Made by a program: the position numbers and the translations under genes. This document shows, one piece after another, positions 23,557-64,000 of a stretch of 64,000 nt of DNA. Origin of the DNA: Candidatus Baldrarchaeota archaeon (lineage in GTDB: Archaea > Asgardarchaeota > Baldrarchaeia > Baldrarchaeales > DXJG01); the NCBI GenBank assembly GCA_019056805.1, contig DXJG01000002.1:154178-218177 (forward strand), read 5' to 3'. How positions within the stretch are numbered: the first letter of the stretch is position 1; every line of letters starts with the position of its first letter. The notes under the pieces were generated by a model that worked only from the letters and a program-made list of their open reading frames with translations, was not told where the DNA came from and ran no database searches.

Positions 23557-24459
23557 ATGTCCATAAGAGAACCAGCAGCCATAGGTTTTTATCCCTTAGA
23601 CCCTCAAGAAACGTTAAAAGTGATAGAAGAATCTTATTTAAGCAAACACGGCCCTGGATCCTTACCAAAGGTTAACAAAAACGGAGAAAGAAGAATAGTT
23701 GCAGGGATAGTTCCTCATGCAGGATACCTCTATTCAGGACCTGTAGCAGCGCATTTTTACTATGAACTTGCAAAAGACGGCGAACCCGAAGTTTTTATCC
23801 TCCTCGGTCCAAGTCACACTGGTTACCCAGGCGTTGGAATAATGACAGAAGGCATCTGGAAAACTTCTTTAGGAGAAATATCAATAGATGAAACTCTCTC
23901 GAATACTATTTTAAATAATTGTGACCTAATACTTGATGCCCCCGAGGCACATGAAGGCGAACATAGCTTAGAAGTTCAACTTCCATTTCTTCAACACCTC
24001 TATGACGCAAAATTCAAGATCGTACCTATAGCAATAGGCATGACAGACTTTGAATCTTGCCAAGATGTAGGAATAGCAATAGCAAAAGCTATAAAAACGA
24101 GTAATAAGGATGCTGTAATAATAGCCAGCACAGACATGACACACTACGGCACCTACTATGGATACACACCAGCTGGTGTTGAACCATTAACCAAAGTTTT
24201 AGAATGGATATACCAGACGGACAAACAAGTTATTGAGAGAATTAAAAGATTAGATGGAGCAGGAGTAATAGAATATGTTTTTGACCAAGGCTTAACAATG
24301 TGTGGTTTTGCTCCAGTAGCGACAATGATAGAAGCCATTAGAAACCTCGGAAAAATTGAACCAAAAGTATTAAAATATGAAACAAGCTTTGGTATTCGAG
24401 GAGGAGATGCTACAGCAATAGTGGGATATTTAGCGATGGCTTTTTATAGGGCAGTTTGA
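23557..24459 (+). CDS. Memo1-like (AmmeMemoRadiSam system protein B family) protein
   Basis: PHAGYLYSG motif and a conserved His/Asp pattern of the MEMO family. Confidence 0.7.
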   Translation: MSIREPAAIGFYPLDPQETLKVIEESYLSKHGPGSLPKVNKNGERRIVAGIVPHAGYLYSGPVAAHFYYELAKDGEPEVFILLGPSHTGYPGVGIMTEGIWKTSLGEISIDETLSNTILNNCDLILDAPEAHEGEHSLEVQLPFLQHLYDAKFKIVPIAIGMTDFESCQDVGIAIAKAIKTSNKDAVIIASTDMTHYGTYYGYTPAGVEPLTKVLEWIYQTDKQVIERIKRLDGAGVIEYVFDQGLTMCGFAPVATMIEAIRNLGKIEPKVLKYETSFGIRGGDATAIVGYLAMAFYRAV

Positions 24460-24534: not shown

Positions 24535-24984
24535 GTGAATGAGGTGATGTTATTGACTGAAAAGTTCATTCCAATTGTTAAATCGCCATCTTGGAAACAC
24601 GGCACAAGAAAAGGGAAAGGATTTAGCATCGGTGAGATTAAAGCAGCCGAGATAGATATTAGTATGGCAGTTAAACTCGGTATACCCATTGATAAAAGAA
24701 GAAAAACCGTACATGAAGAAAATGTTGAAACCTTAAAAAACTACTACCGCGAATTTGCAAAAGAACTAGGGACGACTTCACTTCCTAAAGTTGACAAAAA
24801 AATAATAGAAGAGTTAACTAAAGTTCCTGGTATAAACATTCATGTTGCACGAATACTTGCCAAAAAAGCTTCAATATCTTCCATAGAAGACCTTATAAAC
24901 AGTGATATCAATGAATTATCAAAGAAAACAGGTTATTCGAAAAACAGAATCAAAAAATGGATTTCAGCTGCAAAAGGGGAATAA
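24535..24984 (+). CDS. Ribosomal protein L13e-like protein with C-terminal HhH-like tail
   Basis: The segment GKGFSIGEIKAAEI resembles the conserved L13e motif (G-FSLGELKAAGI). Confidence 0.5.
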   Translation: MNEVMLLTEKFIPIVKSPSWKHGTRKGKGFSIGEIKAAEIDISMAVKLGIPIDKRRKTVHEENVETLKNYYREFAKELGTTSLPKVDKKIIEELTKVPGINIHVARILAKKASISSIEDLINSDINELSKKTGYSKNRIKKWISAAKGE

Positions 24985-24997
24985 TAATTAAAATAAT

Positions 24998-25150
24998 GTG
25001 GCACACCTTTTAGCTTCTTTTCATCTCATATTTTCAAAGAAGCCTTCCAGGTGTGCCTCATCGGTGTCCCCCGCTGCGGAGACACGGTATCATCGTATCC
25101 GCCGAAGGAAACTCAACCGGCACTGTGACTGCGGGTTTTGTCCTCTGCTA
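24998..25150. ncRNA. GC-rich structured intergenic island (candidate ncRNA, family unknown)
   Basis: About 55-60% GC within a genome of about 33% GC. Nested hairpins GGCACACC..GGUGUGCC (25000..25057), an inner GCUUCUUU..AAAGAAGC, and GUGUC..GACAC. The region is non-coding. Confidence 0.35.
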
Positions 25151-25294
25151 AATATTTACATTTATATAGCTTTAAATAAGCTTTACTAAAACTGGAAAAC
25201 TATATCATTAGAATTTATCTCTAAAAGTTAGATGTGAGACACAATATAATTTATAATAAAATGCTAGATATCTCAAGCATGAAGATTATGATGC

Positions 25295-26328: not shown

Positions 26329-26452
26329 ATTAATATCACAAGATATTTTACTTATGTCAAAATTACATACCTCTTTTTTATCCTATGTTTCATTAAGAAC
26401 ATTACAATATTCAAACGAAACATTTAAATACTTCGCAATGTAGAGTTGTATT

Positions 26453-26548
26453 GGCCGAGCCAGTCCTGCAATTGTAGAATGTATTATTTGTCGAATTTTT
26501 CGTCCTCGCCCTCCTCCCCTCTCCCCCCAGGACTGGCAATGAGGCCGG
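26453..26548. ncRNA. GC-rich structured element (candidate ncRNA with K-turn-like base and CU-rich tract)
   Basis: Inverted repeat GGCCGAGCCAGUCCUG ... CAGGACUGGCAAUGAGGCC with tandem GA/AG next to a GGCC stem. The loop contains the CU-rich tract CUCGCCCUCCUCCCCUCUCCCCCC. It lies between convergent gene ends. Confidence 0.3.
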
Positions 26549-26578
26549 TACCCAATATTTTGATATTTTAACAGAACT

Positions 26579-28345
26579 TTAGTCATGAGTATAATAACAT
26601 AAAATTTCTTCTTTGGTTATTTCATCTATTCTTACAAAACCGAATCTCTCAAACTGAACAATCTGATCAACTTTCAAATCTTTACAGTTTGGTTCTCCTA
26701 ATCCCGTAGTTTCGTTTCCATCAGGCATGATCACCCTTATATTCACGTAATTCTGGCTAGGAACCCAATGAATAATTGGAGCCCTTATTTTTCTAGCTTC
26801 TTTGACACTCCAACTAAGAAACTTTCCTTCAATTATGTCTTTTTTAATCGATATAACTTCAAAATTAAACAAATCTTTTAATCTTATAATCTTCTTACTT
26901 TTTAAGAGGTCAAGATCTCTTGAACTTACGAATAGATCAACAATTTCATTTTTCACGGTGAGAGGTATATTTCTAAACCCTAATTCCGGCTTTTCTGGGT
27001 GAAGTGGAGATTTTGCTACGACGTTTTGTTCGGGAATATTAATAATTCTTAATTTTATTGGATTGTCTACAAAAAAGTATCTGAGAGCTACAGGGTCGAT
27101 TAATCTACGGTTATACGCGTAAAGATTTGAAGGACTGTATTCAATATCTACTATACTTAATCCTAAATTTAAAATAGCCTGTCTAAGAGCTTCAGGTCTT
27201 ATTCCTCTCTTTGCTAAAGATTGTAGACTCCAGGTTCTAGGATCATCCCAACCCCTAAAAATACCATTTTCTATCAGTTTTCTGGCCTTCCGTTTACTTA
27301 ATGTTATTCCCTTAAACAAGATCTTTCCATAGTGGATAAACTCCCTTTTAGGCCAGTTAAAAAGTCTCCATATAAATTCTTCCATCATATCTTCTTTTAT
27401 CAAATCTTTTCCGCGAAGGATATGAGTAACACCTAGGAGATAATCATCGATTCCCCAAGAAAACTCTAATAAAGGCCATACTCTATATCGTGTACCAACT
27501 CTGGGATGTTCTCTCTCAGATATTCGCATAATTACATGATCTCGCATGGCAGGATCTGGATGATCCATTCCCGTTTTTAATCGAACAACCGCTTCTCCTT
27601 GCGCGTATTCTCCACTTAACATTCTTTCCCAGTGTTCTAAGTTTTCTTCAATAGTTTGACTTCTATGCGGACATGGTTTTCCCAGTATCTTATATTTTGT
27701 TCTCCACTCTTCTGCATTACATAAACAAACATACGCATGTCCCTGTTCTAAAAGTTGTTTACAATATTTATAGAAGATTTCCAAGCGATCAGACTTGTAA
27801 ATGGTTTTATGCCATTTAACACCTAACCACTCTAGTCCCTCCTTAATAAGGTCATATGCTTCCGGGATAATTTTATGCTCTTTTGCCCCTATAGTGTCGT
27901 CATAAACTAGAAGAAGTTCTCCATTGTAACGTTTAACGTATTCATCGTTAAGAATGGCCATTCTTGCATTACCTATGTGTAGCGGTCCAGATGGAAAAGG
28001 AGCCATCCTCATAACGACTTTTCCCCATTTTTCAACATTGGGTAGTGGCGGTAATTCCTTTTTTTCCTCTTTTTTCTTTTCTTCAAGTAATTCTGGAGCG
28101 ATTGATTCTAATTTTTTAATTTGCTCTTCTAATGTAAGCAAATTTACACTTCTTACTACTTCTTTGACGATGCCCACGATTTCACGGGCTTTCGGTCTTA
28201 AATGAGGATGTTCTCCCATAACTTTACTTATAACAGCTTTTTCATCTGCTTTTCCATTATGTTTTACAGCGTTTGCTAATGCATACCTAATTGCTAAGGA
28301 TTTTATTTCATCACTAGAATTTATTTTCAACTTTGTTCCTCCCAA
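26579..28345 (-). CDS. gltX: Glutamyl-tRNA synthetase (archaeal/eukaryotic type) with N-terminal extension
   Basis: Class I HIGH motif (PSGPLHIGNAR) and an anticodon-binding beta-barrel C-terminal region. 588 aa. Confidence 0.8.
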   Translation of the reverse strand: MGGTKLKINSSDEIKSLAIRYALANAVKHNGKADEKAVISKVMGEHPHLRPKAREIVGIVKEVVRSVNLLTLEEQIKKLESIAPELLEEKKKEEKKELPPLPNVEKWGKVVMRMAPFPSGPLHIGNARMAILNDEYVKRYNGELLLVYDDTIGAKEHKIIPEAYDLIKEGLEWLGVKWHKTIYKSDRLEIFYKYCKQLLEQGHAYVCLCNAEEWRTKYKILGKPCPHRSQTIEENLEHWERMLSGEYAQGEAVVRLKTGMDHPDPAMRDHVIMRISEREHPRVGTRYRVWPLLEFSWGIDDYLLGVTHILRGKDLIKEDMMEEFIWRLFNWPKREFIHYGKILFKGITLSKRKARKLIENGIFRGWDDPRTWSLQSLAKRGIRPEALRQAILNLGLSIVDIEYSPSNLYAYNRRLIDPVALRYFFVDNPIKLRIINIPEQNVVAKSPLHPEKPELGFRNIPLTVKNEIVDLFVSSRDLDLLKSKKIIRLKDLFNFEVISIKKDIIEGKFLSWSVKEARKIRAPIIHWVPSQNYVNIRVIMPDGNETTGLGEPNCKDLKVDQIVQFERFGFVRIDEITKEEILCYYTHD

Positions 28346-28495
28346 GTATCAACATTTTTAACAAATGTATGAGTCGTGAATCAAGTTTCTTTCTTAGACT
28401 ATGTAAGTTATTTAAAAGTTTTTTAATCTAATGGCATTTAAAGACGTATAATTGTAACAAAAACTTAATGGCTACTAGTGTATAGTGACGGAGGT

Positions 28496-29242
28496 CTATT
28501 TTTGTGTTTTTAGAAATTTTTCAAAGCGTTTTGCATCTTCACCCATGTATATATTGTTAAATAATATGTAAATATTCTTTACGGGTAAAAGTGTTATTTT
28601 AGAAGCTAAATATTTGAAATCTTCCAAAGAATATTTATATTTATACATTTTTTTGCCAGGAGGGGAACCATGAAGCCTAAAATATGCAGTGTCTTCAATA
28701 AAATGTTGGGGGTCCTGCGCAAAGGGGTCAACTACATGTATCAAGCTTAGTTTTTCACAAATTTTTTTAATTAAATCAGGAGTCCAGCTTTTTCCTCTAG
28801 GTTCCCAACCAATAACTATATTATCCCTTTCAATGGAAGTGAAGAATTCAGTCATATTTTTTAAGTTTTCTTCTTCCGGTTTAAATTTCGCTGGAGTTTG
28901 CATTATGCATATTTTGCTTTTTAGAGTTTTACATATTTTCTTTGTGGTTTCCCATGCTTCAAACACTTCATCGGTAGGTTTAAAAAAACCGTATCTTTCT
29001 CTTTTTTGTTCCGATATATCTAATCCAGCTTTTTTATATGTTGGTGAGGTTGCGGGATGAGTTATTAATTGCCATGCCTTCACTACAAATTCAAAGTCCT
29101 CGGGAGCATTTTTTCGCCATTTTTCAAGTGTATCAAGTTTTGGAGGCTTATAAAATGTTTTTTGAACCTCAACAAGTTTAAATTCTTCAAAATATTTTTT
29201 CATACCACCTGGAAAACCACAACAACCAATTTTAATATTCAA
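28496..29242 (-). CDS. DUF72 family protein
   Basis: DUF72-like conserved segments (YGFF.., RLHG). Apparently co-transcribed downstream of the small GTPase gene. Confidence 0.6.
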   Translation of the reverse strand: MNIKIGCCGFPGGMKKYFEEFKLVEVQKTFYKPPKLDTLEKWRKNAPEDFEFVVKAWQLITHPATSPTYKKAGLDISEQKRERYGFFKPTDEVFEAWETTKKICKTLKSKICIMQTPAKFKPEEENLKNMTEFFTSIERDNIVIGWEPRGKSWTPDLIKKICEKLSLIHVVDPFAQDPQHFIEDTAYFRLHGSPPGKKMYKYKYSLEDFKYLASKITLLPVKNIYILFNNIYMGEDAKRFEKFLKTQK

Positions 29243-29244
29243 TG

Positions 29245-29772
29245 CTAATAGCCTCCAAAACTAGTTTCATATATAAACTTTGCAAGTTTGAAGAAAACAT
29301 CATTAACATTCTCACCTGTTTTTGCACTGGTTCTGTGACAAGGTATCTTAAGCTGCTCTGCAAGCCTCTTTTCTTCAGCTACACTAACCTTACTTTTGTT
29401 TGCTAAGTCTATCTTATTTCCTACCAAAAGTAAAGGAATTTTTCCACAATACTTTTGAATTTCATTAAACCAGCTTTTTAAATTTTTAAAGCTGTCCTTG
29501 TTTGTTACATCATAAACTAAGAGTCCACCAGCAGCCCCCTTATAATAAAGAGGTCTTAATTTTCTAAAACGTTCTTGACCTCCTGTATCCCATATTTGCA
29601 ATTTCACAGGTTTTCCTATGCCTAGATCTACATGTTTTGTTGCTAAATCCACCCCTATAGTCATCTTATAATTTTCAATGAAATATCCATGAGCAAAACG
29701 AACTGTTAAGCTGGTTTTTCCAACACCAGCATCTCCAACAACAATAACCTTAAACAAATAAACTCCAGCCAT
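29245..29772 (-). CDS. Rab/Ras-like small GTPase
   Basis: G1 GDAGVGKT, switch I TIGVD, G3 WDTGGQERF, G4 GNKIDL and G5 SAK. 175 aa. Confidence 0.85.
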   Translation of the reverse strand: MAGVYLFKVIVVGDAGVGKTSLTVRFAHGYFIENYKMTIGVDLATKHVDLGIGKPVKLQIWDTGGQERFRKLRPLYYKGAAGGLLVYDVTNKDSFKNLKSWFNEIQKYCGKIPLLLVGNKIDLANKSKVSVAEEKRLAEQLKIPCHRTSAKTGENVNDVFFKLAKFIYETSFGGY

Positions 29773-29900
29773 TATGTAAACCTCTAATTTCCTAAAAATA
29801 TTTCAACAGAACAATATAAAATTGTTTTTGATAAGTAAAGATTTTCACAAAATTTTTTATAATAACTTCATGAAAATATTAATGGTTAATATCTTTACGT

Positions 29901-31265
29901 CTAAGCAGCTTTGATGAATTTTTCCTCGTACTTTCGTAGAAACTCAGAAGTTTCCTTGATATCCGAGAACAATTTTCGTACTCGTTCAATATCATCAATA
30001 CTTACTTCCCTTCTGCCTTCTTCCTTTGCATTCACAGCCGCTGGTGTGATCAGAAGAGATGCAAATCTCAAAGAACTTTCTACAGCAATGTCTGCTAGTT
30101 TTTCTAAAGCATCCTTGTTAAGTTCCACACCTTCGGCTTTTGCTCTTATTTTTAAGATCTCTATTACTTCTTCTCGAGAATATGGCCTAGTACAGATGAT
30201 TAGAAGTCTGTCTAAGAAGTCTAGCGGCATTCCCATTGGAGATACATAGTCGGTTCCTCGTATTTTCGTTACTCCACGGTTTGTAGCTAAGATTATAATT
30301 GGTGCTAGTTCACTTTCCATCGCTCGTGTAAGAAATGAAAATGCTTCCAAATCTAAGAGACTTGCTTCATCAATGAATAACACTCCTGGGAGAATCTCTG
30401 CTTTTCCTTGTTCGACCCATTCTTTCACCATCTCATCGACTTGTTCTCTGATTTCTGGGTCAATTTCTTTTTCTTCTCTTCCACCAAAGAACAAAGAAAG
30501 CAAAGTACCACTTGATCTCCTTGCTGTCATTTCATCTAGGTCGTTTAAAGTGACTGTGTAAACAAATTCTTTTTCTTTTAATATTGGCCCTGATGGTACC
30601 GGAATTATACGTTCAGCTTCAATATCGTAAGTTTTTTCTCTTTCGGCACTGCGTCCAAGTCTGGTTACCCTTCCTGTTTCAGCATCTATCATTATTATAT
30701 CACCTTCTGAGATTCCCTGATTTATTAGTTGCATTGCTACACTTTGTCCTACTTCAAAGGTCTTTGTTTCACTTTTTGTTCTTAATGTAATCCTAGCTGA
30801 TTCTGGTATTTGCATATAGGGATTGTAGGGGTTCCTAGTCATTTTTATATTCAGACTTTTCACTTCTCCTTCGTAGATTTTTCTTAGTTCATGTATTCTG
30901 ATTCCAATGGATTTTCGCATAGCGCTCATAAGAATTTCTGTCTTTTTCTTCTCTTCACTATAAATTTCACTGCCAGCAATCATTACAAAGGGTACATCTT
31001 CACCTAACTCTTTTGCAATCGCGATGGCAATTGCAGTTTTACCTGTCCCAGGTGGCCCGGCTAGAAGAACAGCTCTTCCAGCCATTTTTCCTTCTTTAAT
31101 CATATTAACTATTATACCAGCCGCTTCTCTTGCTTCAGTTTGTCCTACCATTCCATCTGCAATAAGTTCAGCTTTTAAATTTTTTAATCCGAGGCCTTTA
31201 ATATGGCTATGGGCACCAATTCTTTCAAATCTGCCTGGTCCACGAACTTCCCGAATTTCCGTCAC
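29901..31265 (-). CDS. RuvB-like AAA+ ATPase (TIP49/RuvBL family)
   Basis: N-terminal IGAHSHIKGLGL, Walker A motif GPPGTGKTAIA, the inserted OB-like domain II, and Walker B ahead of ..VLFIDE.. Size is that of a TIP49 homolog. Confidence 0.8.
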   Translation of the reverse strand: MTEIREVRGPGRFERIGAHSHIKGLGLKNLKAELIADGMVGQTEAREAAGIIVNMIKEGKMAGRAVLLAGPPGTGKTAIAIAIAKELGEDVPFVMIAGSEIYSEEKKKTEILMSAMRKSIGIRIHELRKIYEGEVKSLNIKMTRNPYNPYMQIPESARITLRTKSETKTFEVGQSVAMQLINQGISEGDIIMIDAETGRVTRLGRSAEREKTYDIEAERIIPVPSGPILKEKEFVYTVTLNDLDEMTARRSSGTLLSLFFGGREEKEIDPEIREQVDEMVKEWVEQGKAEILPGVLFIDEASLLDLEAFSFLTRAMESELAPIIILATNRGVTKIRGTDYVSPMGMPLDFLDRLLIICTRPYSREEVIEILKIRAKAEGVELNKDALEKLADIAVESSLRFASLLITPAAVNAKEEGRREVSIDDIERVRKLFSDIKETSEFLRKYEEKFIKAA

Positions 31266-31599: not shown

Positions 31600-31740
31600 G
31601 CGATATGCGGATAGTATGGAGGAAGGAGATAAAAGGGTGAGAGGCTCCGTCAACGTGTGAGTAGGTCTCCCCCCTCCTCCCCCTCGCCACTGATATCACG
31701 CATTTGTGGCGTGTTTCTGTTTTTTGACGGGGCCCGCCAA
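31600..31740. ncRNA. GC-rich intergenic island (candidate structured RNA or 5' leader)
   Basis: A purine-rich tract (GGAGGAAGGAGAUAAAAGGGUGAGAGG) followed by a CU-rich tract (UCUCCCCCCUCCUCCCCCUCGCC) that can pair with it, then a hairpin CACGC-AUUUGUG-GCGUG. It lies 55-190 nt upstream of the 31795 gene. Confidence 0.3.
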
Positions 31741-31794
31741 ACTTTAATTTACTACTTTTAACATTTTTATCACAATAATTCGGAGGTTCTGATC

Positions 31795-38634: not shown

Positions 38635-41600
38635 TTGAAAGCGATGTTTAAGCATGCTTGCCCGAATTGTGAAGGTAAAATTTCTGATGAAAGATTAGCT
38701 ATGGGAGTACCATGCGAAAACTGTCTGTCTATAGATATTAATCAACTAAAAAACCTATGTTCAAAAATGAATCCCTTGGAATTTAAAATAAAAATTCTGG
38801 ACATTTTAAGGGCTCAAGGAACACTAAAAAAGTATTATGAACTTGTTAAAATCGAAAAAGAATTGGCCGAGTTTGAAGATTTATTTAGAAAGGGAACTGG
38901 AAGCAGGCTTTGGAGTGCACAGCGAGAGTGGGCAAGAAGAGTCTTAAAAGGGGTAAGCTTTGCCATAACCGCTCCCACGGGCATAGGTAAAACAGTATTT
39001 GGAATGACTATGGCCATATATCTAAGCACTAAAGGCAAAAAATCCTATATTATTCTCCCCACAACAGTACTTGTTAAGCAGACACTAGATAGAATCAAAG
39101 AGTTTTTAGAAAAAACAGGAATTCAAATTAAGGTTGCTGGTTATTACGCCAAACTTTCCAAGGATGAAAGAGAAGAATTTAAGCATATGGTTGAAACTGG
39201 AGACTTTAATATACTTGTTACAACTTCACAATATCTTGCATTAAAATTTGACGAAGTATCAAAACATAAATTCGATTTTGTATTCGTTGACGATGTAGAT
39301 GCGCTCCTTAAGTTATCAAAAAACATCGATAGAGTTTTGTTACTATTAGGGTTCAGCAACGAAGCTATTAATCTAAGTTTAAGATTAATAAAATTAAAGA
39401 AAGCGTATGTACGAGCAAGAGCAAATGAAATAGATAAAATAGAACACGAAATAGAAGAAATAACAGAAAAAATAAATTCTCTAAAAGAAAAAACAAAGCC
39501 GGGAACATTAATAGTCTCCACTGCAACTGGTAAAGCAAGAGGCGATCGAGTGAAGTTGTTTAGAGAGTTGTTAAACTTTACAATCGGGTCAGCAAGTGAA
39601 GGTTACAGAAACGTTCAAGACCTTTATATTCCAAGAGAAAGAAACGTAGAAGAACAGTTACATGCATTAGTTAAAAAACTAGGAGCAGGTGGAATTATCT
39701 TTGTCACACTCGAAGAAGGAATAGATTTTGCTGAAAAAATCGCCAATTTTCTAAATGAAAGGGGAGTTAAAGCTGAAGCTTTCCACGCAGGCAAGAAAAG
39801 CCCTGAAATCATAGATCAGTTTTCTAATGGTGAAATAGACATACTTATTGGGGTTGCAAGTCATTATGGACTTTTAGTCAGAGGTCTTGATCTACCACAT
39901 CGCGTACGCTACGCTATTTTCACCGGGGTTCCAAAATTCAAATTCAGCTTAGATGTTAGCGAAGAAACCAGTCCAACAAGAATATACATGCTTCTATCCG
40001 AAATATCAGAATACTTACCCAGCGAGGAAAAAGAAAAAGCCGAAAACTTTCTCAGGAAAATCAGACAATACTTAATGAGACTAACACCAACACAGTTACA
40101 ACAAATTAGAGATGCACTAACTGCCAAAACAAAAATAAATAATACATATCTTCAAAACATCTTAGACCTCTATGTCAACGTCATAAATTTTGTTGATTCC
40201 ATGCTTAAAAGAAAAGACATTCTTGATAAGATAAGAGAAAGTCCATTTATATCTCTAGAAAAAATAGACGAAGAACTCTATATACTAATACCAGATGTAA
40301 GAACCTACATTCAAGCTTCGGGAAGAACATCGAGATTATTTGCAGGAGGAGTAGCTAAAGGGATTTCAATACTCCTAGTAGATAATGAAAAGATCTTCAA
40401 CGGTCTTGTAAGGCAACTAAGATGGAGATTCGAAGAAAGCGAATGGAAACATCTAAACGAAGTAGACCTAACTTCGCTACTTAAAGAAGTCGATGCCGAC
40501 AGAGAACTTATTTTAAAAATTAAACGAGGAGAAATAACGATAGAATTAAAAGACCCAGTAAAATCAGCACTTCTCATAGTAGAATCTCCAAGTAAAGCAT
40601 TTACTATTTCCACATTTTTCGGCAAACCAGCAAGAAGAAGATTACATGGATTACCAGTCTACGAAGTTGTAACTGGAGATTTAGACTTAAACGTAGCTGC
40701 AAGCGGAGGTCATATTTTTGATCTAGTTACTGAAGAAGGGTTCCACGGTGTGATGACCGAAAACGGGGTTTTCATACCAATATATACAACAATAAAAAGA
40801 TGTATGACATGCAGAGAACAATTTGTAGAAGATGTAGACAGGTGTCCACGATGTAAATCCACAGAAATAAAAAACTCCCTAGATAATGTAAAAGCACTAA
40901 GCGAAATAGCCTCTGAAGTAGATATAATCCTTATAGGAACCGATCCAGATTCTGTTACGGGAGATTCAGAAGTTTTGGTGAATTTAAATGGAAAAGTATT
41001 CCTATCTAGGATCGACGAACTATTTGAAAGATTAAAGAGTTCAAAAGAATTTTACTTTTTCACTAAGAGAAATCATGAATATCTTGAACCAAAAGATAAT
41101 AGTTATTTAAAAGTATTAGGAGTTGATAAGCACTTTGACACTCGATGGGTAAATGTAAATTATTTCATTAGGCATAAAGTTCAAAAAGAAATTTATGAAA
41201 TCGAAACAGCAACAGGCAGAAGTATAAAAGTGACTGGAGACCACTCCTTATTTACACTTAAAGATTTCCAGCTTCAAGAACTTAAAATAAGCGAAATTAA
41301 AATCGGAGATATGTTAGTAGTTCCACGAAGACTGGTATGTAATGAAAATAGTCTTGAATATATTGACATTTTAGATTTTAAAGACTTAGGTGCGAAAAAA
41401 GTAGACGAAAAACATGTTAAGATTGGAAAAAGTAAACCTATACCAAGATACATAAAGCTTGATAAAATTTTTCTCGAGTTTCTCGGTCTATGGATAGGTG
41501 ATGGTTCATTCCACAAAGATAGATATGTACGCATTTCTGTCATTGATAAAGAGTCAAGAAAAGTTGTAAAGGAAATAGCTAAGAGATTCGGAGCAAAGAT

Positions 41601-43629
41601 ATATGAAGAAAAGGACAATGCAACACTTACAATAATGTCAAGGGCTCTTTACCTTATTTTAAAGAAAGTTTTCGGTTTAAAGCATGGTGCAGGTTCAAAA
41701 GAAGTTCCATCTATAATTTTTTCTCTTTCTAAAGAACAAATATCAGCTTTTCTAAGAGGATACATCAGTGCTGATGGTACTGTGTCTAAAGGAGAACCTA
41801 ATTTTTCAACAAAATCCAAAAAACTCTTTGAACAACTTAGAACGCTATTTCTAATGTTAGGAATTGTGGTTAAAAAATACGAAGATAACGGGGTTCTTAG
41901 AGGATTTATCCATGCAGAGTGGATATCCGATTTCATAAATAAAATTGGCTTTCTTCAGGAAAGTAAAAATAGTAAGATAACTCCTAAGAAAGGAATAAGG
42001 AATTACATAGATGTATTTCCCGTGGAAGGGTTAAAAGGATGCATTAAGACGAATCCCAGTTATGCAGAGGCAATATATAGATCTGGGATAATGGGAAGAC
42101 GGAGATTGGAGAACTTTTTGCCATTTATAAAAAATGAAACATTGAAAGAGACTGTTAAAAGCGTTCTAAATTCGGATATTATGGTCGAAAAAGTTGTTAA
42201 AATTAGAAAAATAGAAAAATTTAATGATTATGTTTATGATTTTGATACGGAAACTGATAACTTTATAGCAAACAATATTCTCGCCCATAATACCGAGGGG
42301 GAGAAAATTGGTTGGGATATAGCTACTGTCTTATCACCGTATGCGCACCAAATTAAACGTGTAGAATTTCATGAAATAACAAAAATGGCGATTAGGAATG
42401 CGCTTGAAAATCTTAAAGAAATAGATGAAAACAGAGTATCAGCACAACTGGTACGTAGAATAGAGGATAGATGGATAGGTTTCGAGTTAAGTAGACGTCT
42501 TTGGCAAAGATTTCGGGATTATCATCTCTCTGCAGGCAGAGTTCAGACCCCGGTTTTAGGTTGGATAATAGAAAGATATAAGGAATTTCTAAAAAGTTGG
42601 AAATATGTTTTCTGGGTGAAGCTATCAAATCAATACATAGTGGAGCTCAGAGATCTTGGGGGAAAGCCTTACGAGATTGCTGAGAAACTTCGCGGTTCAG
42701 ATGTTAAAATTATATTCCTTGAGGAAACTTTAGAAGATTTGAATCCACCTCCACCATTTACAACTGATGAAATGTTGAGAGAAGCATCAAGACTCTTAAA
42801 ATTCGGTGCACAAGAAACTATGATTCTTGCACAAGCGCTTTTCGAATCCGGTCTAATAACTTACCATAGAACGGATAGTCACCGAGTAAGTAATGTAGGA
42901 ATAAGAATCGCTAAGGAATACATAACTCAAGAAATTGGTGAAGAGTATTTTCATGCAAGAAAATGGGGAACAGAGGAAGAAGGAGCTCATGAATGTATCC
43001 GTCCAACACGTCCACTAAACGTGGAAAGACTAAGAACTCTAATAGAGGAAGGAGTAATAAAAACAGCAGAAACAATGACATGGCAACACTACAAACTATA
43101 TCAACTCATATTCAACAGATTTATTGCAAGCCAAATGACACCTGCGAAAATAAAAAGAATGAAGGCAAAAATAAAGTTCAATGAAATAGTTGAGACTGAA
43201 ATAGAAGGAATTACAGAAATAGTTGAACCAGGATTTACAACGATACAACCAATAAAAACGATACCCAAATTAAAAGAACCACTAAGCGTAGTTGATGTTA
43301 AATTCAAAAAAATACCAACAATAAGTCTTTATACGCAAGGAGATATTGTTGAACTCATGAAAAAGAGAGGAATAGGAAGACCATCTACGTATGCAACAAT
43401 AATACAAACATTACTTGAAAGAGGTTATGTAGAAGAGAAAAACAAAATGTTAAAACCTACAAAACTGGGAATCAAAGTATACGAGTACCTATCAAAATTT
43501 TACAGCAACTTAGTATCAGAAGAAAGAACTAGAGAACTGGAAAGAAAAATGGAAGAAATAGAAGAAGGAAAGGTAAATCATCAACAAATCTTAAAGGATC
43601 TCTACCAGGAAATAAAAAGTCTCAAATGA
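38635..43629 (+). CDS. rgy: Reverse gyrase (helicase plus topoisomerase IA) carrying an intein
   Basis: N-terminal Zn finger, SF2 helicase motifs (APTGIGKT, DDVD), the TOPRIM motif TDPD//TEGEKI split by an insert, and topo IA domains. 1664 aa total, 1217 aa without the insert. Confidence 0.9.
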   Translation: MKAMFKHACPNCEGKISDERLAMGVPCENCLSIDINQLKNLCSKMNPLEFKIKILDILRAQGTLKKYYELVKIEKELAEFEDLFRKGTGSRLWSAQREWARRVLKGVSFAITAPTGIGKTVFGMTMAIYLSTKGKKSYIILPTTVLVKQTLDRIKEFLEKTGIQIKVAGYYAKLSKDEREEFKHMVETGDFNILVTTSQYLALKFDEVSKHKFDFVFVDDVDALLKLSKNIDRVLLLLGFSNEAINLSLRLIKLKKAYVRARANEIDKIEHEIEEITEKINSLKEKTKPGTLIVSTATGKARGDRVKLFRELLNFTIGSASEGYRNVQDLYIPRERNVEEQLHALVKKLGAGGIIFVTLEEGIDFAEKIANFLNERGVKAEAFHAGKKSPEIIDQFSNGEIDILIGVASHYGLLVRGLDLPHRVRYAIFTGVPKFKFSLDVSEETSPTRIYMLLSEISEYLPSEEKEKAENFLRKIRQYLMRLTPTQLQQIRDALTAKTKINNTYLQNILDLYVNVINFVDSMLKRKDILDKIRESPFISLEKIDEELYILIPDVRTYIQASGRTSRLFAGGVAKGISILLVDNEKIFNGLVRQLRWRFEESEWKHLNEVDLTSLLKEVDADRELILKIKRGEITIELKDPVKSALLIVESPSKAFTISTFFGKPARRRLHGLPVYEVVTGDLDLNVAASGGHIFDLVTEEGFHGVMTENGVFIPIYTTIKRCMTCREQFVEDVDRCPRCKSTEIKNSLDNVKALSEIASEVDIILIGTDPDSVTGDSEVLVNLNGKVFLSRIDELFERLKSSKEFYFFTKRNHEYLEPKDNSYLKVLGVDKHFDTRWVNVNYFIRHKVQKEIYEIETATGRSIKVTGDHSLFTLKDFQLQELKISEIKIGDMLVVPRRLVCNENSLEYIDILDFKDLGAKKVDEKHVKIGKSKPIPRYIKLDKIFLEFLGLWIGDGSFHKDRYVRISVIDKESRKVVKEIAKRFGAKIYEEKDNATLTIMSRALYLILKKVFGLKHGAGSKEVPSIIFSLSKEQISAFLRGYISADGTVSKGEPNFSTKSKKLFEQLRTLFLMLGIVVKKYEDNGVLRGFIHAEWISDFINKIGFLQESKNSKITPKKGIRNYIDVFPVEGLKGCIKTNPSYAEAIYRSGIMGRRRLENFLPFIKNETLKETVKSVLNSDIMVEKVVKIRKIEKFNDYVYDFDTETDNFIANNILAHNTEGEKIGWDIATVLSPYAHQIKRVEFHEITKMAIRNALENLKEIDENRVSAQLVRRIEDRWIGFELSRRLWQRFRDYHLSAGRVQTPVLGWIIERYKEFLKSWKYVFWVKLSNQYIVELRDLGGKPYEIAEKLRGSDVKIIFLEETLEDLNPPPPFTTDEMLREASRLLKFGAQETMILAQALFESGLITYHRTDSHRVSNVGIRIAKEYITQEIGEEYFHARKWGTEEEGAHECIRPTRPLNVERLRTLIEEGVIKTAETMTWQHYKLYQLIFNRFIASQMTPAKIKRMKAKIKFNEIVETEIEGITEIVEPGFTTIQPIKTIPKLKEPLSVVDVKFKKIPTISLYTQGDIVELMKKRGIGRPSTYATIIQTLLERGYVEEKNKMLKPTKLGIKVYEYLSKFYSNLVSEERTRELERKMEEIEEGKVNHQQILKDLYQEIKSLK
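40951..42291 (+). mobile_element. Intein (447 aa) with LAGLIDADG homing endonuclease domain inside the reverse gyrase TOPRIM motif
   Basis: Begins with Ser after TDPD and ends with HN before TEGEKI. Contains LAGLIDADG motifs LGLWIGDGSF and LRGYISADGTVS. Confidence 0.8.
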
Positions 43630-45379: not shown

Positions 45380-46354
45380 ATGTTATTGACAGACCTTTTT
45401 GAAAAAAATAAATTAAGATTTCTACTGTTTGGCGGTAAAGGCGGTGTAGGAAAAACAAGTTGTGCAGCAGCGACTTCCCTTTGGGCAGCAGAAAATGGAA
45501 AAGAAACCCTAGTAATTAGTACAGACCCAGCTCACAGTTTATCGGATAGTTTCGGAGAAAAAATAGGAGATTCTATCAAAAAAATAAACGGAATAAAAAA
45601 CCTCTATGGTCTTGAAATAGACCCTAAAAAAGCAATACGTGAATATAGCGAAAAACTACAATCAACACCAGATTTAGGCCTACCAATAGATGTACAAACG
45701 GACGAACTCGAGGAATTGACATCTCTTACGCCGCCAGGAGCTGACGAGGCTCTTGCTTTTGCAAAAGTTTTAGAATTTATAGAAAGACCCGAATATGACC
45801 TCATAATTTTCGACACTGCTCCAACTGGGCATACTTTAAGACTTCTTAGTTTACCTGATATTTTAAACAGTTGGGTTGGAAAACTCATTAAAATGAGAGC
45901 ATGGATTCTTCGAATGACCTCCTTCTTTAAAAGAATTTTAGGTAAAGGAGGAGAAGAGGACAAAACGATGGAATATCTTGAAAAACTAAAAAATACTATT
46001 GAGACAGCAAGAGCAGAACTGTCAAATGAAGAGGAGACACGATTTATACCAGTTATGATTCCAGAGGCCATGTCAATCTACGAGACGGAGCGCTTAGTAA
46101 GAACTTTATACGAATACGAGATTCCAGTTACACACATCATTGTTAATATGATTCATCCAGAAGTTCTAGGATGTACTTTTTGTGCAGCTCGTAGAAGCAT
46201 GCAAATAGAGAATCTAAAAATTATTAATGAGTATTATTCTGACTTTTCAATAGTTTATATGCCTCTCTTTCCGACCGAAATTAGAGGTATTTCGAAGCTT
46301 AGGGAATTTGCAAAATACCTTTTTGAGGAGGAATTTATACCTAAATTATATTAG
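45380..46354 (+). CDS. ArsA/Get3-family ATPase (single domain, with CxxC motif)
   Basis: P-loop GGKGGVGKTS, the DTAPTGHT signature, and a CTFC CxxC pair as in Get3/TRC40. Confidence 0.8.
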   Translation: MLLTDLFEKNKLRFLLFGGKGGVGKTSCAAATSLWAAENGKETLVISTDPAHSLSDSFGEKIGDSIKKINGIKNLYGLEIDPKKAIREYSEKLQSTPDLGLPIDVQTDELEELTSLTPPGADEALAFAKVLEFIERPEYDLIIFDTAPTGHTLRLLSLPDILNSWVGKLIKMRAWILRMTSFFKRILGKGGEEDKTMEYLEKLKNTIETARAELSNEEETRFIPVMIPEAMSIYETERLVRTLYEYEIPVTHIIVNMIHPEVLGCTFCAARRSMQIENLKIINEYYSDFSIVYMPLFPTEIRGISKLREFAKYLFEEEFIPKLY

Positions 46355-55628: not shown

Positions 55629-55851
55629 TTTTCTCCCTCTTTTCGAGGTCTTTTAATAACATCAAAAATATATAAATTGTTTCTATATTTTCATCTGGGA
55701 AGGAAACAATTAGTTAAACTATGAAATTACCGTATTACGAGCCGTATAAAAAGTTTATGAATAGACATTTATTCAATAAACCTACCAATTATATGGCAAA
55801 ATCTTTTTACACATAGTGCACATTTTTAAGATTAATTACGGGGCGAGTAAC

Positions 55852-56226
55852 ATGTCTGGCAAAGTGAACCAAATAAAGCAAATACTCCAACTCTTAGAGA
55901 TAAACACACCAGGAATCGAAGCCAGCGCTATAGTATCTCTTCAAGGTCTGCCAATAGTCTCTGCCATGCCAGCAGGTGTAAACGACGATGTAGTCGCTGC
56001 AATGACAGCCGCCGTACTCAGCGTAGGCGAAAAAGCCTTACAAGAATTAAGAAAAGGAAGACTAGTAAAAATATTGGTTGAAGGAGAAGAAGGATACATA
56101 ATAATGACAACTATCGGCCGAAACGCCATACTTACAGTTCTAGCCAAACAATCCGCAAATCTAGGGCTAATTTTCCTAATGATGAAACAAACAGCCCAAA
56201 AAATAGAAAATCTCCTAGCAGAATAA
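55852..56226 (+). CDS. Roadblock/LC7 (MglB-like) domain protein
   Basis: About 125 aa alpha-beta-alpha pattern typical of roadblock/LC7 (..IEASAIVSLQGLPIVSAM..). Confidence 0.7.
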   Translation: MSGKVNQIKQILQLLEINTPGIEASAIVSLQGLPIVSAMPAGVNDDVVAAMTAAVLSVGEKALQELRKGRLVKILVEGEEGYIIMTTIGRNAILTVLAKQSANLGLIFLMMKQTAQKIENLLAE

Positions 56227-60532: not shown

Positions 60533-61333
60533 ATGGATATTTTGAGAAGAATGGTCCTTGACATTGACATCAAAAGCCTTAGAGACCCGATATGTATACA
60601 AGGGATGCCCGGAATAGCACTTGCTGGAAAAACCGCGGTAGACTATATTATTAAGCTTTCTGATGCTAAAAAATTTATGGAAGTATGCTATGCAGATTTT
60701 CCGCCAAACGTAGTTGTTGAAGGAGACGGCAGAGTTAGAACGGCACAATGTGAATTCTACATATGGAGAAATGATAATATCAGTAGAGATTTCATCCTTT
60801 TAACAAGCGATTGGCAACCTACTACAATTGCAGGAATGAATGAACTATCAGCACATATAGCTGATGTTTTGAATGAATTAAAAGTAGAAATGATCGTAGC
60901 ACTTGCTGCTTCACCCGTTAGCATGCCCAAAAAAGATCCAAAAGTCTTTTTAACCGGCACATCAGGAGAAGTTATTGAATTTTTCCGGTCAAAGGATGAA
61001 AATTTAATAGTACTCACAGATGGAGTTATTACAGGTATGAACGGCTTAGTACCAATATTAGCAAAAGTTTTTTATGATATAGATGGAGCAATTCTCCTTG
61101 GAGAGGCAGCTCAAAGAATAGATAGATGGCTTACTCTCTCTAAAGATCTGTCGGCATCCAAGGCACTAGTTAAAACTTTAAATAGAGTATTTGGTTTCAA
61201 CCTAGACACGTCTCAGTTAGACGAAGAAACAGAAAAAATGTTTAAGTTACTCGATGAGATAAGGGTAAAAACAGCTAAAAGAGTGAAAACAATCAAAAAA
61301 GAAGAAAGGAGAGAACCTGAATATATTGGGTGA
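60533..61333 (+). CDS. PAC2 (proteasome assembly chaperone 2)-family protein
   Basis: Conserved archaeal COG1938/PAC2-like N-terminal pattern (..CIQGMPGIALAGKTAVDY..). Confidence 0.55.
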   Translation: MDILRRMVLDIDIKSLRDPICIQGMPGIALAGKTAVDYIIKLSDAKKFMEVCYADFPPNVVVEGDGRVRTAQCEFYIWRNDNISRDFILLTSDWQPTTIAGMNELSAHIADVLNELKVEMIVALAASPVSMPKKDPKVFLTGTSGEVIEFFRSKDENLIVLTDGVITGMNGLVPILAKVFYDIDGAILLGEAAQRIDRWLTLSKDLSASKALVKTLNRVFGFNLDTSQLDEETEKMFKLLDEIRVKTAKRVKTIKKEERREPEYIG

Positions 61334-61650: not shown

Positions 61651-61707
61651 TGTAAATCCGGTTCGCGGAGACATTTGTCGATGAAGATCCCCTACCTACT
61701 GATCAAT
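61641..61707 (+). ncRNA. Candidate C/D box sRNA overlapping the stop codon of the upstream ORF
   Basis: Terminal stem AUUGA/UCAAU, a C box AUGAUGU at the 5' end, an internal cGAUGA, and a D box CUGA 12 nt after the guide region. Confidence 0.4.
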
Positions 61708-61844
61708 ATTACAAAATGCCTCAGACAAAATTGCATATAATTAGATGAGAAAAGTGATTATATAGAGAAAATCGTTATTTGATTTGAGAAGAACACGGTT
61801 AACTTTTTAGGTTATGGTTAAGATATTATATTGGAGGTTACTAC

Positions 61845-64000
61845 TTGCGAAAGTCGCAAAATATCAGAAACTTCCTTTTAACTGGAAGGTGCAAAGTCGC
61901 GATATTACTAATATTATTTATATTACTGTTGAGTCTTTACATTCTAACAGCAAATTCCAGCATCTCATTTTTAACTAAACAGTCTCAAGAACCATATGAT
62001 GAAATACCACCATATTCTCCATCCTCTATACCATCTGGAACCTTCCCACTTAGTGGTAGCTGGGCTCAAGAAATTTTTGAAAATATATCACTATCAGAAA
62101 ACGTAACATTAGAAGAAGTTGATTGGCTTTATTATCTAACATACCAAGGAATAGAAGACTTAGAAAAAATATTATTTACAGTCTACCCTGAAAACCCGCC
62201 TAGATACTGGAGAATTACAGCTTATGACAATTACACAGGTAGAGTAGGAGATTCTGCAGGTAGATGGACACATCTAAACGAAACAACATCCCCATTAGGA
62301 TACGCCCCTTCTCCTAATTCACTTAACTACACTGTAATAATGGACATAGACTATAATACTCGTTTCATACGTAATCTTCCAGTCCTTTGGCCGGACCCCC
62401 TAATATTAAGCGGGTCCCTTGAAATCGGTGTCGAGCCTCTACGATATGAACTGCTTATTGATAATTATCAAGGCGTTATTTTTAATGCAACTTTTACAGA
62501 CTCTGGATCTACAACTCTAAAATATAAAGTCTCATATGTCCCTGTCAATTTAACAGAGGTTAGACTTAATGCTCTGCCACCAAACTATACTCCTGATGAA
62601 ATTGCTAATGTTTACACGAGTCTTCCACCATTATCTCAAGATGTTTATAATTTTGCATCTCAATTTGCAGATAAAGGTGAAAATACCTTTGAAACAGCGT
62701 TAATAGTTCTAAGATATTTTCAAGTCACTTTTGAATACGATTACGAAATGCTATTTGGAACTTCAACTGACCCTGGCCCAGCTCAAGACCAAGACTATGT
62801 TGAATGGTTTTTACAAAGAGGCAAGGGACTTTCGATACACTTTGCCACAGCCTACGTTGTAACGCTTAGAATTTTAGGGATACCAGCAAGGATGGTTTTT
62901 GGCTTTCTACCTGGAGAGGAAAGTGGAAACGGTAGAGTCATAAAAAATAAACATTTACACTTTTGGGCAGAAGTTTGGATACCCACATCGACAACTGGCG
63001 ATGGAGTCTGGGTACCCTTCGATCCAGCACCTCCAGGTTATTTAGAGGCTTTAAACACTGAGAGAGATTCCTATGTAATAAATCCAAAATACACATTGAC
63101 TCTTGAAGCATCTCAAGGAAATGTTACAAGAGGGGTACCAGTTAATTTAACGGCAACTTTGCTAAGTGATGGCGAGCCTTTGACTGGCGAGATAATAACC
63201 TTTACCGATATGTATGATCTCTTAACATTGAATGGTGCAACGAGAGTAACGAACGATAGTGGAGTAGCAGTTCTAACACTGATCTTCAATGATACATCTA
63301 TTGTAGGCTTTCATGTAATTATAGCAAGTTGGAAAATTCTGAGTAATCAAACTACCGTAGTTTTGATGGGTAACACCACTATTTCAGTTACTGTTACGCC
63401 AAGCGAAGTAGCAAGAACCGAAATAGCACAAATAAGAGGAAGTTTGTGTGACGCTAAAAATGGAAGAGGACTGCCCAATCATCAGGTAACAATTATCTGG
63501 GGTGAAGGGAATTTTACCGATGTTCTTTACACGACAACCTCATCAGATGGTAGCTTTAATTACAACTATAGGGTACCCCTTGATCATCCACTGGGTAATA
63601 CTACGGTTCAGGCAATTTACGAAGGATATCCTCTTCTCATCTCGCCTTCGTCCAATGTTACAAATGTAACTGTTGTTGCTAACGTTAGACTCGTTATATA
63701 TGCAACTCCAAATGAAGTTAGATGGAATGAAACAGTAATAATAGAGGGGGCACTATTACTTGATAATTCCACTCCTCTTTCATATCAAAATCTTACTATT
63801 TATTGGGATAATTCAACGGTTGAAGGAGGGCTATATGTTCTTGGAGTTGTTACAACCGATGAAAGCGGAAGTTATAATTTTACCATAAATATTCCAATAA
63901 ATCACCCTCTAGGTTTTTCACAAGTCTTTTGCAGCTATAATTCCACAATTAAATACGTAAAAAGCGGGAATTCTTCAAAATTACAAATTCTAATTTACGA
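61845..64000 (+). CDS. Secreted/membrane-anchored transglutaminase-like (TGc) domain protein with Ig-like repeats. Partial; continues beyond window end.
   Basis: TTG start 7 nt after GGAGG, an N-terminal signal anchor, a TGc core with the Cys position occupied by Ser (GKGLSIHFATAY), His (HLHFWAEVWIP) and Asp (WVPFDP), then repeated beta-rich domains. Many N-x-S/T sequons. Confidence 0.65.
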   Translation, partial: MRKSQNIRNFLLTGRCKVAILLILFILLLSLYILTANSSISFLTKQSQEPYDEIPPYSPSSIPSGTFPLSGSWAQEIFENISLSENVTLEEVDWLYYLTYQGIEDLEKILFTVYPENPPRYWRITAYDNYTGRVGDSAGRWTHLNETTSPLGYAPSPNSLNYTVIMDIDYNTRFIRNLPVLWPDPLILSGSLEIGVEPLRYELLIDNYQGVIFNATFTDSGSTTLKYKVSYVPVNLTEVRLNALPPNYTPDEIANVYTSLPPLSQDVYNFASQFADKGENTFETALIVLRYFQVTFEYDYEMLFGTSTDPGPAQDQDYVEWFLQRGKGLSIHFATAYVVTLRILGIPARMVFGFLPGEESGNGRVIKNKHLHFWAEVWIPTSTTGDGVWVPFDPAPPGYLEALNTERDSYVINPKYTLTLEASQGNVTRGVPVNLTATLLSDGEPLTGEIITFTDMYDLLTLNGATRVTNDSGVAVLTLIFNDTSIVGFHVIIASWKILSNQTTVVLMGNTTISVTVTPSEVARTEIAQIRGSLCDAKNGRGLPNHQVTIIWGEGNFTDVLYTTTSSDGSFNYNYRVPLDHPLGNTTVQAIYEGYPLLISPSSNVTNVTVVANVRLVIYATPNEVRWNETVIIEGALLLDNSTPLSYQNLTIYWDNSTVEGGLYVLGVVTTDESGSYNFTINIPINHPLGFSQVFCSYNSTIKYVKSGNSSKLQILIY

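Follow-up and report, generated by a model that had tools for sequence, protein, structure and literature searches.

A Rab-like GTPase gene located between TIP49 and a glutamyl-tRNA synthetase in Baldrarchaeia, and its lineage-specific pairing with a DUF72 gene

We analyzed a stretch of 64,000 nucleotides (nt) from Candidatus Baldrarchaeota archaeon (assembly GCA_019056805.1, contig DXJG01000002.1, positions 154,178 to 218,177 of the forward strand), hereafter called the window, with a focus on a small GTPase gene, on the DUF72 gene that directly follows it, and on the neighbors of both. The minus-strand region from 26.5 to 31.3 kb contains four co-directional open reading frames (ORFs), which encode, in 5' to 3' order, TIP49, the GTPase, the DUF72 protein, and glutamyl-tRNA synthetase (GluRS):

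29901-31265, minus strand, TIP49/RuvB-like AAA+ ATPase, 454 amino acids, GTG start after GGGAGGG
29245-29772, minus strand, Rab-like small GTPase, 175 amino acids, C-terminal Cys tail absent
28496-29242, minus strand, DUF72 protein, 248 amino acids, TTG start, predicted TIM-barrel
26579-28345, minus strand, archaeal GluRS (NCBIfam NF003169, Pfam tRNA-synt_1c)

The Pfam matches of these genes are far better than chance would give. TIP49 matched PF06068 with 491 bits and PF17856 (TIP49_C, the AAA-lid) with 78 bits, the GTPase matched PF00071 (Ras; 191.5 bits, E-value 1e-56, cut-off 21.6), and the DUF72 protein matched PF01904 (126 bits, cut-off 25.3). The synthetase matched the NCBIfam model NF003169 (archaeal glutamate-tRNA ligase) with 712 bits versus a cut-off of 516. 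A first-pass annotation of the window, made from the letters and translated ORFs only, had given positions for this cluster which proved correct (the ORFs are on the minus strand), and had recognized a TIP49/RuvBL-type AAA+ protein upstream of the GTPase, which agrees with the PF06068 match; the spacer between the two genes is 128 nt long. It had also described the DUF72 gene as lying tightly 3' of the GTPase gene at a distance of 3 nt. The tight arrangement on the same strand holds, but the distance does not: the GTPase stop codon is TAG at 29247-29245 and the TTG start of DUF72 is at 29242, leaving a gap of 2 nt. This TTG start is credible because residues 6–11 of the DUF72 protein (GCCGFP), located 5' of the first in-frame ATG, are invariant among its homologs. 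For GluRS, the true start is likely to be the TTG at 28330, with GGAGG in front of it; the gene call in locus L001 is 583 amino acids long, matching this start.

Public data (JGI metagenomes 3300004069 and 3300002532, NCBI, and Logan) contain sequences identical to the GTPase and TIP49 of the window, and the longest contig bearing the GTPase gene spans 612 kb. GTPase orthologs named Candidatus Baldrarchaeota or Baldrarchaeia are 82–84% identical to the window protein, DUF72 orthologs in Baldrarchaeia are ~80% identical, and the TIP49 orthologs of Baldrarchaeia fall into the same 90%-identity cluster; overall, orthologs of all three genes in this group show 80–93% identity. In addition, the whole 16-kb neighborhood is syntenic in close Baldrarchaeia genomes. 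By the closest orthologs of several genes and the matching synteny, the contig is assigned to Baldrarchaeia, a published Asgard class (bioRxiv 10.1101/2020.10.19.343400) inferred to be hyperthermophilic and to bear reverse gyrase (PMC10307638). The earlier guess of a thermophilic Asgard-like lineage was therefore correct, given orthologs at 80–93% identity in a class described in these terms. One member of the TIP49 90% cluster is labeled ‘Candidatus Odinarchaeota archaeon’ (NCBI MCD6164915.1), the others being Baldrarchaeia; this label is probably outdated or wrong for that metagenome-assembled genome (MAG). Another TIP49 homolog from the same metagenomes (P0249) was discarded as belonging to a different organism, without a GTPase neighbor.

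The 175-residue GTPase contains the five G motifs, including the segments WDTGGQERF and GNKIDL which had been picked out at first sight: GDAGVGKT (residues 13–20), the switch-I T38, DTGGQ (62–66), NKID (119–122), and SAK (149–151). With G1–G5 and a PF00071 score above the cut-off, it belongs to the Ras superfamily. All five Rab family motifs (RabF1–F5) were also recognized, namely IGVDL (39–43), KLQIW (57–61), RFRKLR (68–73), YYKGA (76–80), and LVYDVT (85–90), the eukaryotic reference motifs being IGVDF, KLQIW, RFrsiT, YYRGA, and LVYDIT. The substitutions are conservative, and the same ones have been reported in archaeal Rab-like proteins (PMC4915359); RabF4 carries Lys in place of Arg. The protein ends in ...KFIYETSFGGY, 8 residues past the last helix, and its sole Cys residues are at positions 109 and 145. 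Both the sequence and the alignment indicated that the prenylatable C-terminal Cys of eukaryotic Rabs is absent, and aligned fungal Ypt1 sequences have a 35-amino acid tail with a GCC end.

Comparison with known structures gave the same picture. The best 60 sequence matches in PDB were all Rabs (E-values of ~1e-44 to 1e-39), with Rab1A/B, Sec4, and Ypt1 scoring best and Rab43, Rab8, and Rab35 also represented. An AlphaFold2 model of the GTPase (predicted local distance difference test score, pLDDT, 88.7) has the Rab-type G-domain fold, and its best 50 fold matches in PDB were again all Rabs, with a template modeling (TM) score of 0.85–0.93 and a root-mean-square deviation (rmsd) of 1.3–2.3 Å. 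The placement of this protein in the Rab/Ras family by the first-pass annotation was thus upheld by motifs, PDB sequence matches, and fold, all of which point to a Rab-like protein. In BLASTP comparisons, other Asgard GTPases came first (53–59% identity), followed by Rab1/Ypt1 (51–52%), and then by Rab5/11/7 (41–43%) and Ran/Rac/Ras (34–36%). The nearest Asgard homologs outside Baldrarchaeia, named ‘Rab family GTPase’, are 50–60% identical. With eukaryotic Rab1/Ypt1/Sec4 (PDB 3NKV, 4FMC, and 1G16), the protein shares 47–52% identity across the whole G domain, a TM-score of 0.89–0.92 with an rmsd of 1.5–2 Å, and all recognizable RabF motifs; it differs from them in having neither the hypervariable tail nor the CC/CXC geranylgeranylation site, and no sign of REP/GDI, TRAPP, or TBC partners was seen here.

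An identity of 51–52% to fungal Ypt1 and fish Rab1 might suggest that the gene is a eukaryotic contaminant or was recently transferred from a eukaryote. However, it is located within an archaeal array whose synteny is shared by several independent assemblies, it is free of introns and preceded by a GAGG ribosome-binding motif, and the GC content of positions 28001-30000 is 32%, slightly under the 33–39% observed elsewhere in the window. Its nearest relatives are Asgard proteins, and the hypervariable tail and CC of the fungal sequences are absent. We consider a eukaryotic origin extremely improbable. It is hardly more credible that the protein is an MglA-type polarity GTPase paired with the roadblock/MglB-like gene of the window. 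A Robl_LC7 gene is indeed present at 55816-56226, but it is 26 kb away and adjoins no GTPase gene, the GTPase has RabF motifs, and the label MglA was absent from the 120 homologs, 60 PDB sequence matches, and 50 PDB fold matches listed. The first-pass annotation had named a grouping with MglA as the outcome that would speak against its assignment, and no such label appeared among the homologs listed.

A neighbor-joining (NJ) tree was built from 120 GTPase homologs and reference GTPases (126 taxa, 200 bootstraps). Baldrarchaeia GTPases formed a branch of their own with a support of 1.00, and eukaryotic Rabs formed a weak group (0.54) apart from the Asgard sequences; only shallow clades were supported, the backbone values being 0.2 or lower. 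Of the phylogeny proposed in the first-pass annotation, a distinct Baldrarchaeia clade was obtained, but a placement relative to eukaryotic Rabs was not, and membership in the Rab1 subfamily was not supported by this tree. A metagenome scan with the GTPase alignment was also tried and put aside: it returned at least 80 loci, mostly on ~1-kb contigs, with Rab-type genes of 37–51% identity which are probably largely eukaryotic, and was of no use for synteny.

With its RabF motifs kept, a short Cys-free C-terminus, and archaeal synteny, the GTPase is a typical archaeal Rab-like protein of the kind already described (Surkont and Pereira-Leal 2016, PMC4915359). It shares with these proteins the G motifs, RabF1–F5 with Lys in RabF4, and a short C-terminus without prenylatable Cys, polybasic signal, or lipidation signal. 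It also resembles them in a relation to eukaryotic Rabs that phylogeny does not settle and in a location outside operons with roadblock, longin, or TRAPP regulators (PMC4915359; PMC10933270). What distinguishes the window protein is that it represents the Baldrarchaeia branch and has a DUF72 gene directly 3'. The crystal structure of Thor-Rab has confirmed the archaeal Rab-like picture structurally, and GTPase activity was demonstrated for that protein (Tran et al. 2024, PMC10933270). The window protein has an intact P-loop, retains the catalytic Gln66, and has NKID, which predicts guanine specificity; these features are expected of a GDP/GTP switch. Considering that it lacks a prenylated tail, this switch is most likely either soluble or recruited by partners.

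The upstream neighbor, TIP49, aligned over its full length with human and yeast RuvBL2 (422 bits) and RuvBL1 (401 bits), its residues 2–451 corresponding to residues 8–451 of RuvBL2. It is colinear with the eukaryotic proteins (TIP49a/b, Rvb1/2) along the full length, and the segment that separates the Walker motifs aligns as well; the difference is that a single archaeal gene is similar about equally to both eukaryotic paralogs. Homologs with 60–70% identity were detected in Methanomethylicia, Bathyarchaeia, Korarchaeota, Thaumarchaeota, and Nezhaarchaeales, and in Asgard archaea as well. Such a spread across TACK (Thaumarchaeota, Aigarchaeota, Crenarchaeota, and Korarchaeota) lineages implies that TIP49 is not Asgard-specific. 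When TIP49, the GTPase, and the DUF72 protein were compared with the PADLOC models of defense systems, generic P-loop hits were all that came up, and a role in defense was therefore rejected.

For the DUF72 protein, the AlphaFold2 model (pLDDT 90.5) was most similar to the DUF72 crystal structures 1VPY and 1VPQ (TM-score 0.71–0.74; for 1VPY, 0.74 with a Foldseek E-value of 2e-12). UV-damage endonuclease (UVDE) and endonuclease IV (Nfo), both TIM-barrel nucleases, ranked after the DUF72 structures with TM-scores of ~0.6 and 8–12% identity. The model therefore suggests a TIM-barrel protein which is a putative metal-dependent DNA-repair-type endonuclease. DUF72 proteins have been predicted to be DNA-repair endonucleases in previous studies (PMC3828134, PMC11791011), and our literature search found no demonstrated activity for any of them. 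PF01904 and the predicted fold are shared with known members of the family (TM1631, EF0366; 1VPQ, 1VPY, 1ZTV), but the protein studied here is from an archaeal subfamily of compact size with a GCCGFPGG N-terminus. Homologs with 50–60% identity occur in Loki-, Jord-, Frey-, and Asgard-archaeia, Bathyarchaeia, Archaeoglobi, Thermoplasmata, Methanocellales, Hydrothermarchaeota, and several bacterial phyla (e.g., Chloroflexota).

Several possible transcription and translation signals were found around the GTPase and DUF72 genes, where BRE denotes the transcription factor B recognition element:

29812-29827, minus strand, AAACAATTTTATATTG, BRE/TATA-like box, ~45 nt 5' of the GTPase ATG
29252-29256, minus strand, GGAGG, within the last GTPase codons, 9 nt 5' of the DUF72 TTG
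28459-28463, minus strand, T5 run, 33 nt past the DUF72 stop, relatives being T-rich at the same place
28408-28423, minus strand, AAAAACTTTTAAATAA, BRE/TATA-like box, 5' of GluRS

Six Baldrarchaeia loci carry the first box unchanged within an otherwise diverged TIP49-GTPase spacer; this box is a candidate promoter of the GTPase-DUF72 unit. The second box varies among the six loci at a single one of its 16 positions (T-to-A in L008), again in a spacer that has otherwise diverged, and it may represent a separate promoter of GluRS. The GGAGG is a candidate Shine-Dalgarno site for coupled translation, and the T5 run a possible, though weak, archaeal oligo-T terminator. In relatives, the GTPase and DUF72 genes overlap by 4 nt. 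These features suggest three units, [TIP49], [GTPase-DUF72], and [GluRS]: the GTPase and DUF72 genes of Baldrarchaeia are probably transcribed together from their own conserved TATA-like promoter, with TIP49 and GluRS on either side apparently forming units of their own. The co-transcription of GTPase and DUF72 proposed in the first-pass annotation is plausible in view of the 2-nt gap, the 4-nt overlap in relatives, and the GGAGG 9 nt before DUF72. A scan for sigma-70 promoters and intrinsic terminators was discarded, as it gave fewer sites than shuffled sequences and the bacterial model is wrong for an archaeon.

To place this gene pair in a wider context, we examined 80 GTDB species-representative DUF72 loci with 6-kb flanks, in which six-frame ORFs were scanned with the four window proteins. 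The order TIP49-GTPase-DUF72-GluRS was found in two of the 80 loci, both from Baldrarchaeia and ~80% identical. In none of the remaining 78 species-level loci, Asgardarchaeia, Jordarchaeia, and Freyarchaeota included, did a GTPase gene adjoin DUF72. Three of these 78 have a weak GTPase match 2.6–4 kb away on the opposite strand, which is unremarkable because small GTPases account for up to ~2% of Asgard genes (PMC10307638). On the other hand, a second and remoter Baldrarchaeia lineage (GCA_016840465.1 and relatives; L173-L175, 5001-9348) has TIP49, DUF72, and GluRS but no GTPase gene at this site; its TIP49 and GluRS are 78% and 61% identical to those of the window, respectively. Our literature search found no report of a GTPase gene followed by DUF72.

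One might still regard the two genes as a functional module in which the GTPase switches or localizes the nuclease-like DUF72 protein. The 2-nt gap here and 4-nt overlap in relatives, with GGAGG positioned for coupled translation, would fit such a module, as would the conserved promoter-like box ahead of the pair and the arrangement kept in all close Baldrarchaeia loci. However, these close relatives share the whole 16 kb and, the region being syntenic throughout, their agreement is not independent evidence. No DUF72 locus outside close Baldrarchaeia (0 of 78) adjoins a GTPase gene, DUF72 proteins of the same subfamily are present at 50–60% identity where Rab-like GTPases are absent (Archaeoglobi, Bathyarchaeia, Chloroflexota), and the second Baldrarchaeia lineage keeps DUF72 at the site without the GTPase. 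A single chance adjacency would also be unremarkable when small GTPases make up as many as ~2% of Asgard genes (PMC10307638). We thus judge a functional two-gene module to be very unlikely. The pairing is a gene-order event of one Baldrarchaeia sub-lineage and not a conserved functional module. The meaningful GTPase-DUF72 linkage suspected in the first-pass annotation, and the synteny check it had suggested for it, therefore came out negative, with only two of 80 species-level loci from close Baldrarchaeia and a second lineage missing the GTPase.

We also examined the neighborhoods of the best-scoring GTPase homologs of other Asgard classes; a uniform rescan agreed. GluRS or TIP49 was found beside the GTPase gene in four of them:

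Freyarchaeota (L090): TIP49, 80 nt, GTPase, L24e
Odinarchaeia (L091): GTPase, 21 nt, GluRS
Atabeyarchaeia, complete genome CP147779 (L176): GTPase, 177 nt, GluRS
Promethearchaeota MAG (L180): GTPase, 263 nt, GluRS

In the Odin-, Atabey-, and Promethearchaeota loci, the GTPase gene is upstream of GluRS on the same strand and the remaining neighbors differ. That three of the eight lineages sampled have the single-copy GluRS gene as a neighbor of the GTPase gene goes far beyond chance (~1 in a few thousand per locus by our own estimate). The GluRS- and TIP49-linked Asgard GTPases are probably positional orthologs, which suggests an old positional GTPase orthogroup into which DUF72 was inserted later. 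The simplest history would start from an ancestral TIP49-GTPase-GluRS order; a DUF72 gene would then have been interposed between GTPase and GluRS in Baldrarchaeia, and the GTPase gene would have been lost or moved in one Baldrarchaeia sub-lineage. No mention of a Rab-like GTPase gene adjoining GluRS or TIP49 was found in the literature.

Two further features of these loci were noted. A thermosome gene is located divergently upstream in the Odinarchaeia and Promethearchaeota loci (the latter L180). In another Odinarchaeia locus (L092, GCA_054383415.1, 5547-7256), GluRS is split into three ORF pieces, although it is intact in the near-identical L091; IS605-family OrfB/TnpB-like genes are located just 3' of the broken gene, and the breakage may have resulted from frameshifts or assembly errors.

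If any neighbor were functionally linked to the GTPase, it could be GluRS and/or TIP49, the GTPase orthogroup serving as an Asgard-wide switch that responds to the status of aminoacylation or translation or takes part in TIP49-dependent assembly. Signaling between Rag GTPases and aminoacyl-tRNA synthetases in eukaryotes offers a loose analogy for a GTPase-GluRS link. The GTPase gene is right upstream of GluRS in Odin-, Atabey-, and Promethearchaeota genomes whose other neighbors are unlike, has the same order with DUF72 in between in Baldrarchaeia, and is right downstream of TIP49 in Frey- and Baldr-archaeia; one specific single-copy neighbor in three of eight loci has, by our estimate, a very small probability of arising by chance. 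However, the adjacency may be no more than gene order retained from an ancestor, and the gaps of 177–263 nt together with the conserved promoter-like box of GluRS argue against obligatory co-transcription. The orthology lacks tree support and a handful of genomes was sampled, no literature was found on such a link, and the protein is Rab-like, not Rag-like. A functional link of this kind appears unlikely. A conserved neighborhood of a Rab-like GTPase is known from the Asgard operon of LAMTOR1-like roadblock, Rab-like GTPase, and DENN genes (Liu et al., bioRxiv 10.1101/2020.10.19.343400), but the neighbors here are TIP49, DUF72, and GluRS, and neither roadblock nor DENN adjoins.

Taken together, the region is very probably an ordinary stretch of housekeeping genes of hyperthermophilic Baldrarchaeia, with a Rab-like GTPase of known kind and a lineage-specific DUF72 pairing. 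The essentials are already published for Asgard archaea, including Rab-like GTPases and eukaryote-like proteins in hyperthermophilic Baldrarchaeia; the only mildly new point is the apparently old address of the GTPase gene between TIP49 and GluRS.

Several observations weigh against this interpretation. The top GTPases of Wukong-, Heimdall-, and Hel-archaeia have neither GluRS nor TIP49 adjoining. The orthology of the GluRS- and TIP49-linked GTPases to the window protein was not established by the NJ tree, with its backbone of 0.2 or lower. The promoter, terminator, and Shine-Dalgarno assignments are inferred from sequence conservation. In addition, the second Baldrarchaeia lineage encodes a DUF72 protein with only 36% identity to that of the window (versus 61–78% for the flanking genes), from a longer subfamily with a ~60-amino acid C-terminal extension. 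A single insertion does not account for DUF72 genes of two subfamilies in one place; the gene was either replaced in place or independently acquired there, and this could hint at selection for DUF72 at this position. A different history would be that the GTPase orthogroup has been kept beside GluRS/TIP49 since early Asgard evolution because these proteins work together, the GTPase for example coupling aminoacylation or translation status, or the assembly of TIP49-dependent complexes, to processes downstream, and DUF72 having been recruited twice from two subfamilies in Baldrarchaeia; we regard this as rather improbable. If true, a functional tie to GluRS/TIP49 would represent an archaeal forerunner of signaling between GTPases and aminoacyl-tRNA synthetases.

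Further genes named in the first-pass annotation were identified by Pfam/NCBIfam matches:

23557-24459, Memo
24535-24984, plus strand, L13e
38635-43629, plus strand, reverse gyrase, 1664-amino acid ORF with an intein inside
45380-46354, ArsA/Get3
55816-56226, Robl_LC7 (Roadblock)
60533-61333, PAC2

The roadblock/LC7, L13e, Get3-like, Memo, PAC2, and reverse gyrase genes are thus all present. In contrast, the possible profilin was not detected in the tested ORFs, relaxed Pfam scans of all unassigned window ORFs of at least 90 amino acids included. The claim that the window is enriched in eukaryotic signature proteins was also not supported: TIP49 is spread across TACK lineages and the GTPase alone is an Asgard-typical signature protein. 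Roadblock, ArsA/Get3, Memo, PAC2, and L13e are widespread archaeal families. The framing as a eukaryotic signature cluster is overstated.

In the reverse gyrase, a LAGLIDADG homing-endonuclease domain of the intein is located between the Toprim and topoisomerase domains. The ortholog in the second Baldrarchaeia lineage is 1235 amino acids long and therefore probably without intein. The L13e protein is extended at its C-terminus by a helix-hairpin-helix (HHH_5) domain, a fusion also observed in Baldrarchaeia relatives. No tRNA genes were found by ARAGORN in the 64-kb window, and no Rfam family could be assigned anywhere in it at the gathering threshold. At 61651-64000 no complete ORF of at least 60 amino acids is listed, perhaps due to a long ORF running off the edge.

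Some spacers contain GC-rich elements. Between an AstE/AspA-like gene and TIP49, an island of ~127 nt (31634-31760, minus strand) has a GC content of 53–61% in a spacer of ~19%. It is 92% identical in all close Baldrarchaeia loci, with diverged flanking spacer, and a conserved AAAAGTAGTAAATTAA box is located ~20 nt 5' of it. The predicted fold comprises a 16-bp lower stem, a large asymmetric internal loop with GGGGGAGGAGGGGGG, and a 6-bp upper stem. No Rfam family matched the island, and its variants were too few to show covariation; it is a candidate for an unannotated structured small RNA (sRNA). A second island (25024-25152, in the spacer 24992-25260, minus strand) between L13e and the next gene reaches 62% GC and gave a sub-threshold Rfam match to the archaeal H/ACA sRNA HgcG/Pab40 (21 bits versus a gathering threshold of 77, E-value 0.0024); Rfam searches of the GC-rich islands at E-values up to 1 yielded no assignment beyond this one sub-threshold H/ACA-like match. 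A third element (26452-26552), in the spacer before GluRS, forms a hairpin closed by CCAGTCCTG/CAGGACTGG, which encloses a C-rich tract (CGCCCTCCTCCCCTCTCCCCCC, plus strand) roughly of complement type to the G-tract in the 31.7-kb element.

With respect to the biology of Asgard archaea, the GTPase-DUF72 link needs no further attention, as it reflects a change of gene order in a single lineage. On the other hand, a stable address, 3' of TIP49 and 5' of GluRS, seems to be shared across several Asgard classes by at least one Rab-like GTPase. Since small-GTPase trees are notoriously poor in resolution, such positional orthology could help to sort the dozens of Asgard GTPase paralogs into orthogroups, and a stable address could help to choose a conserved, probably housekeeping GTPase for experiments. 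The window also illustrates that an Asgard fragment is recognizable from raw sequence without database tools.

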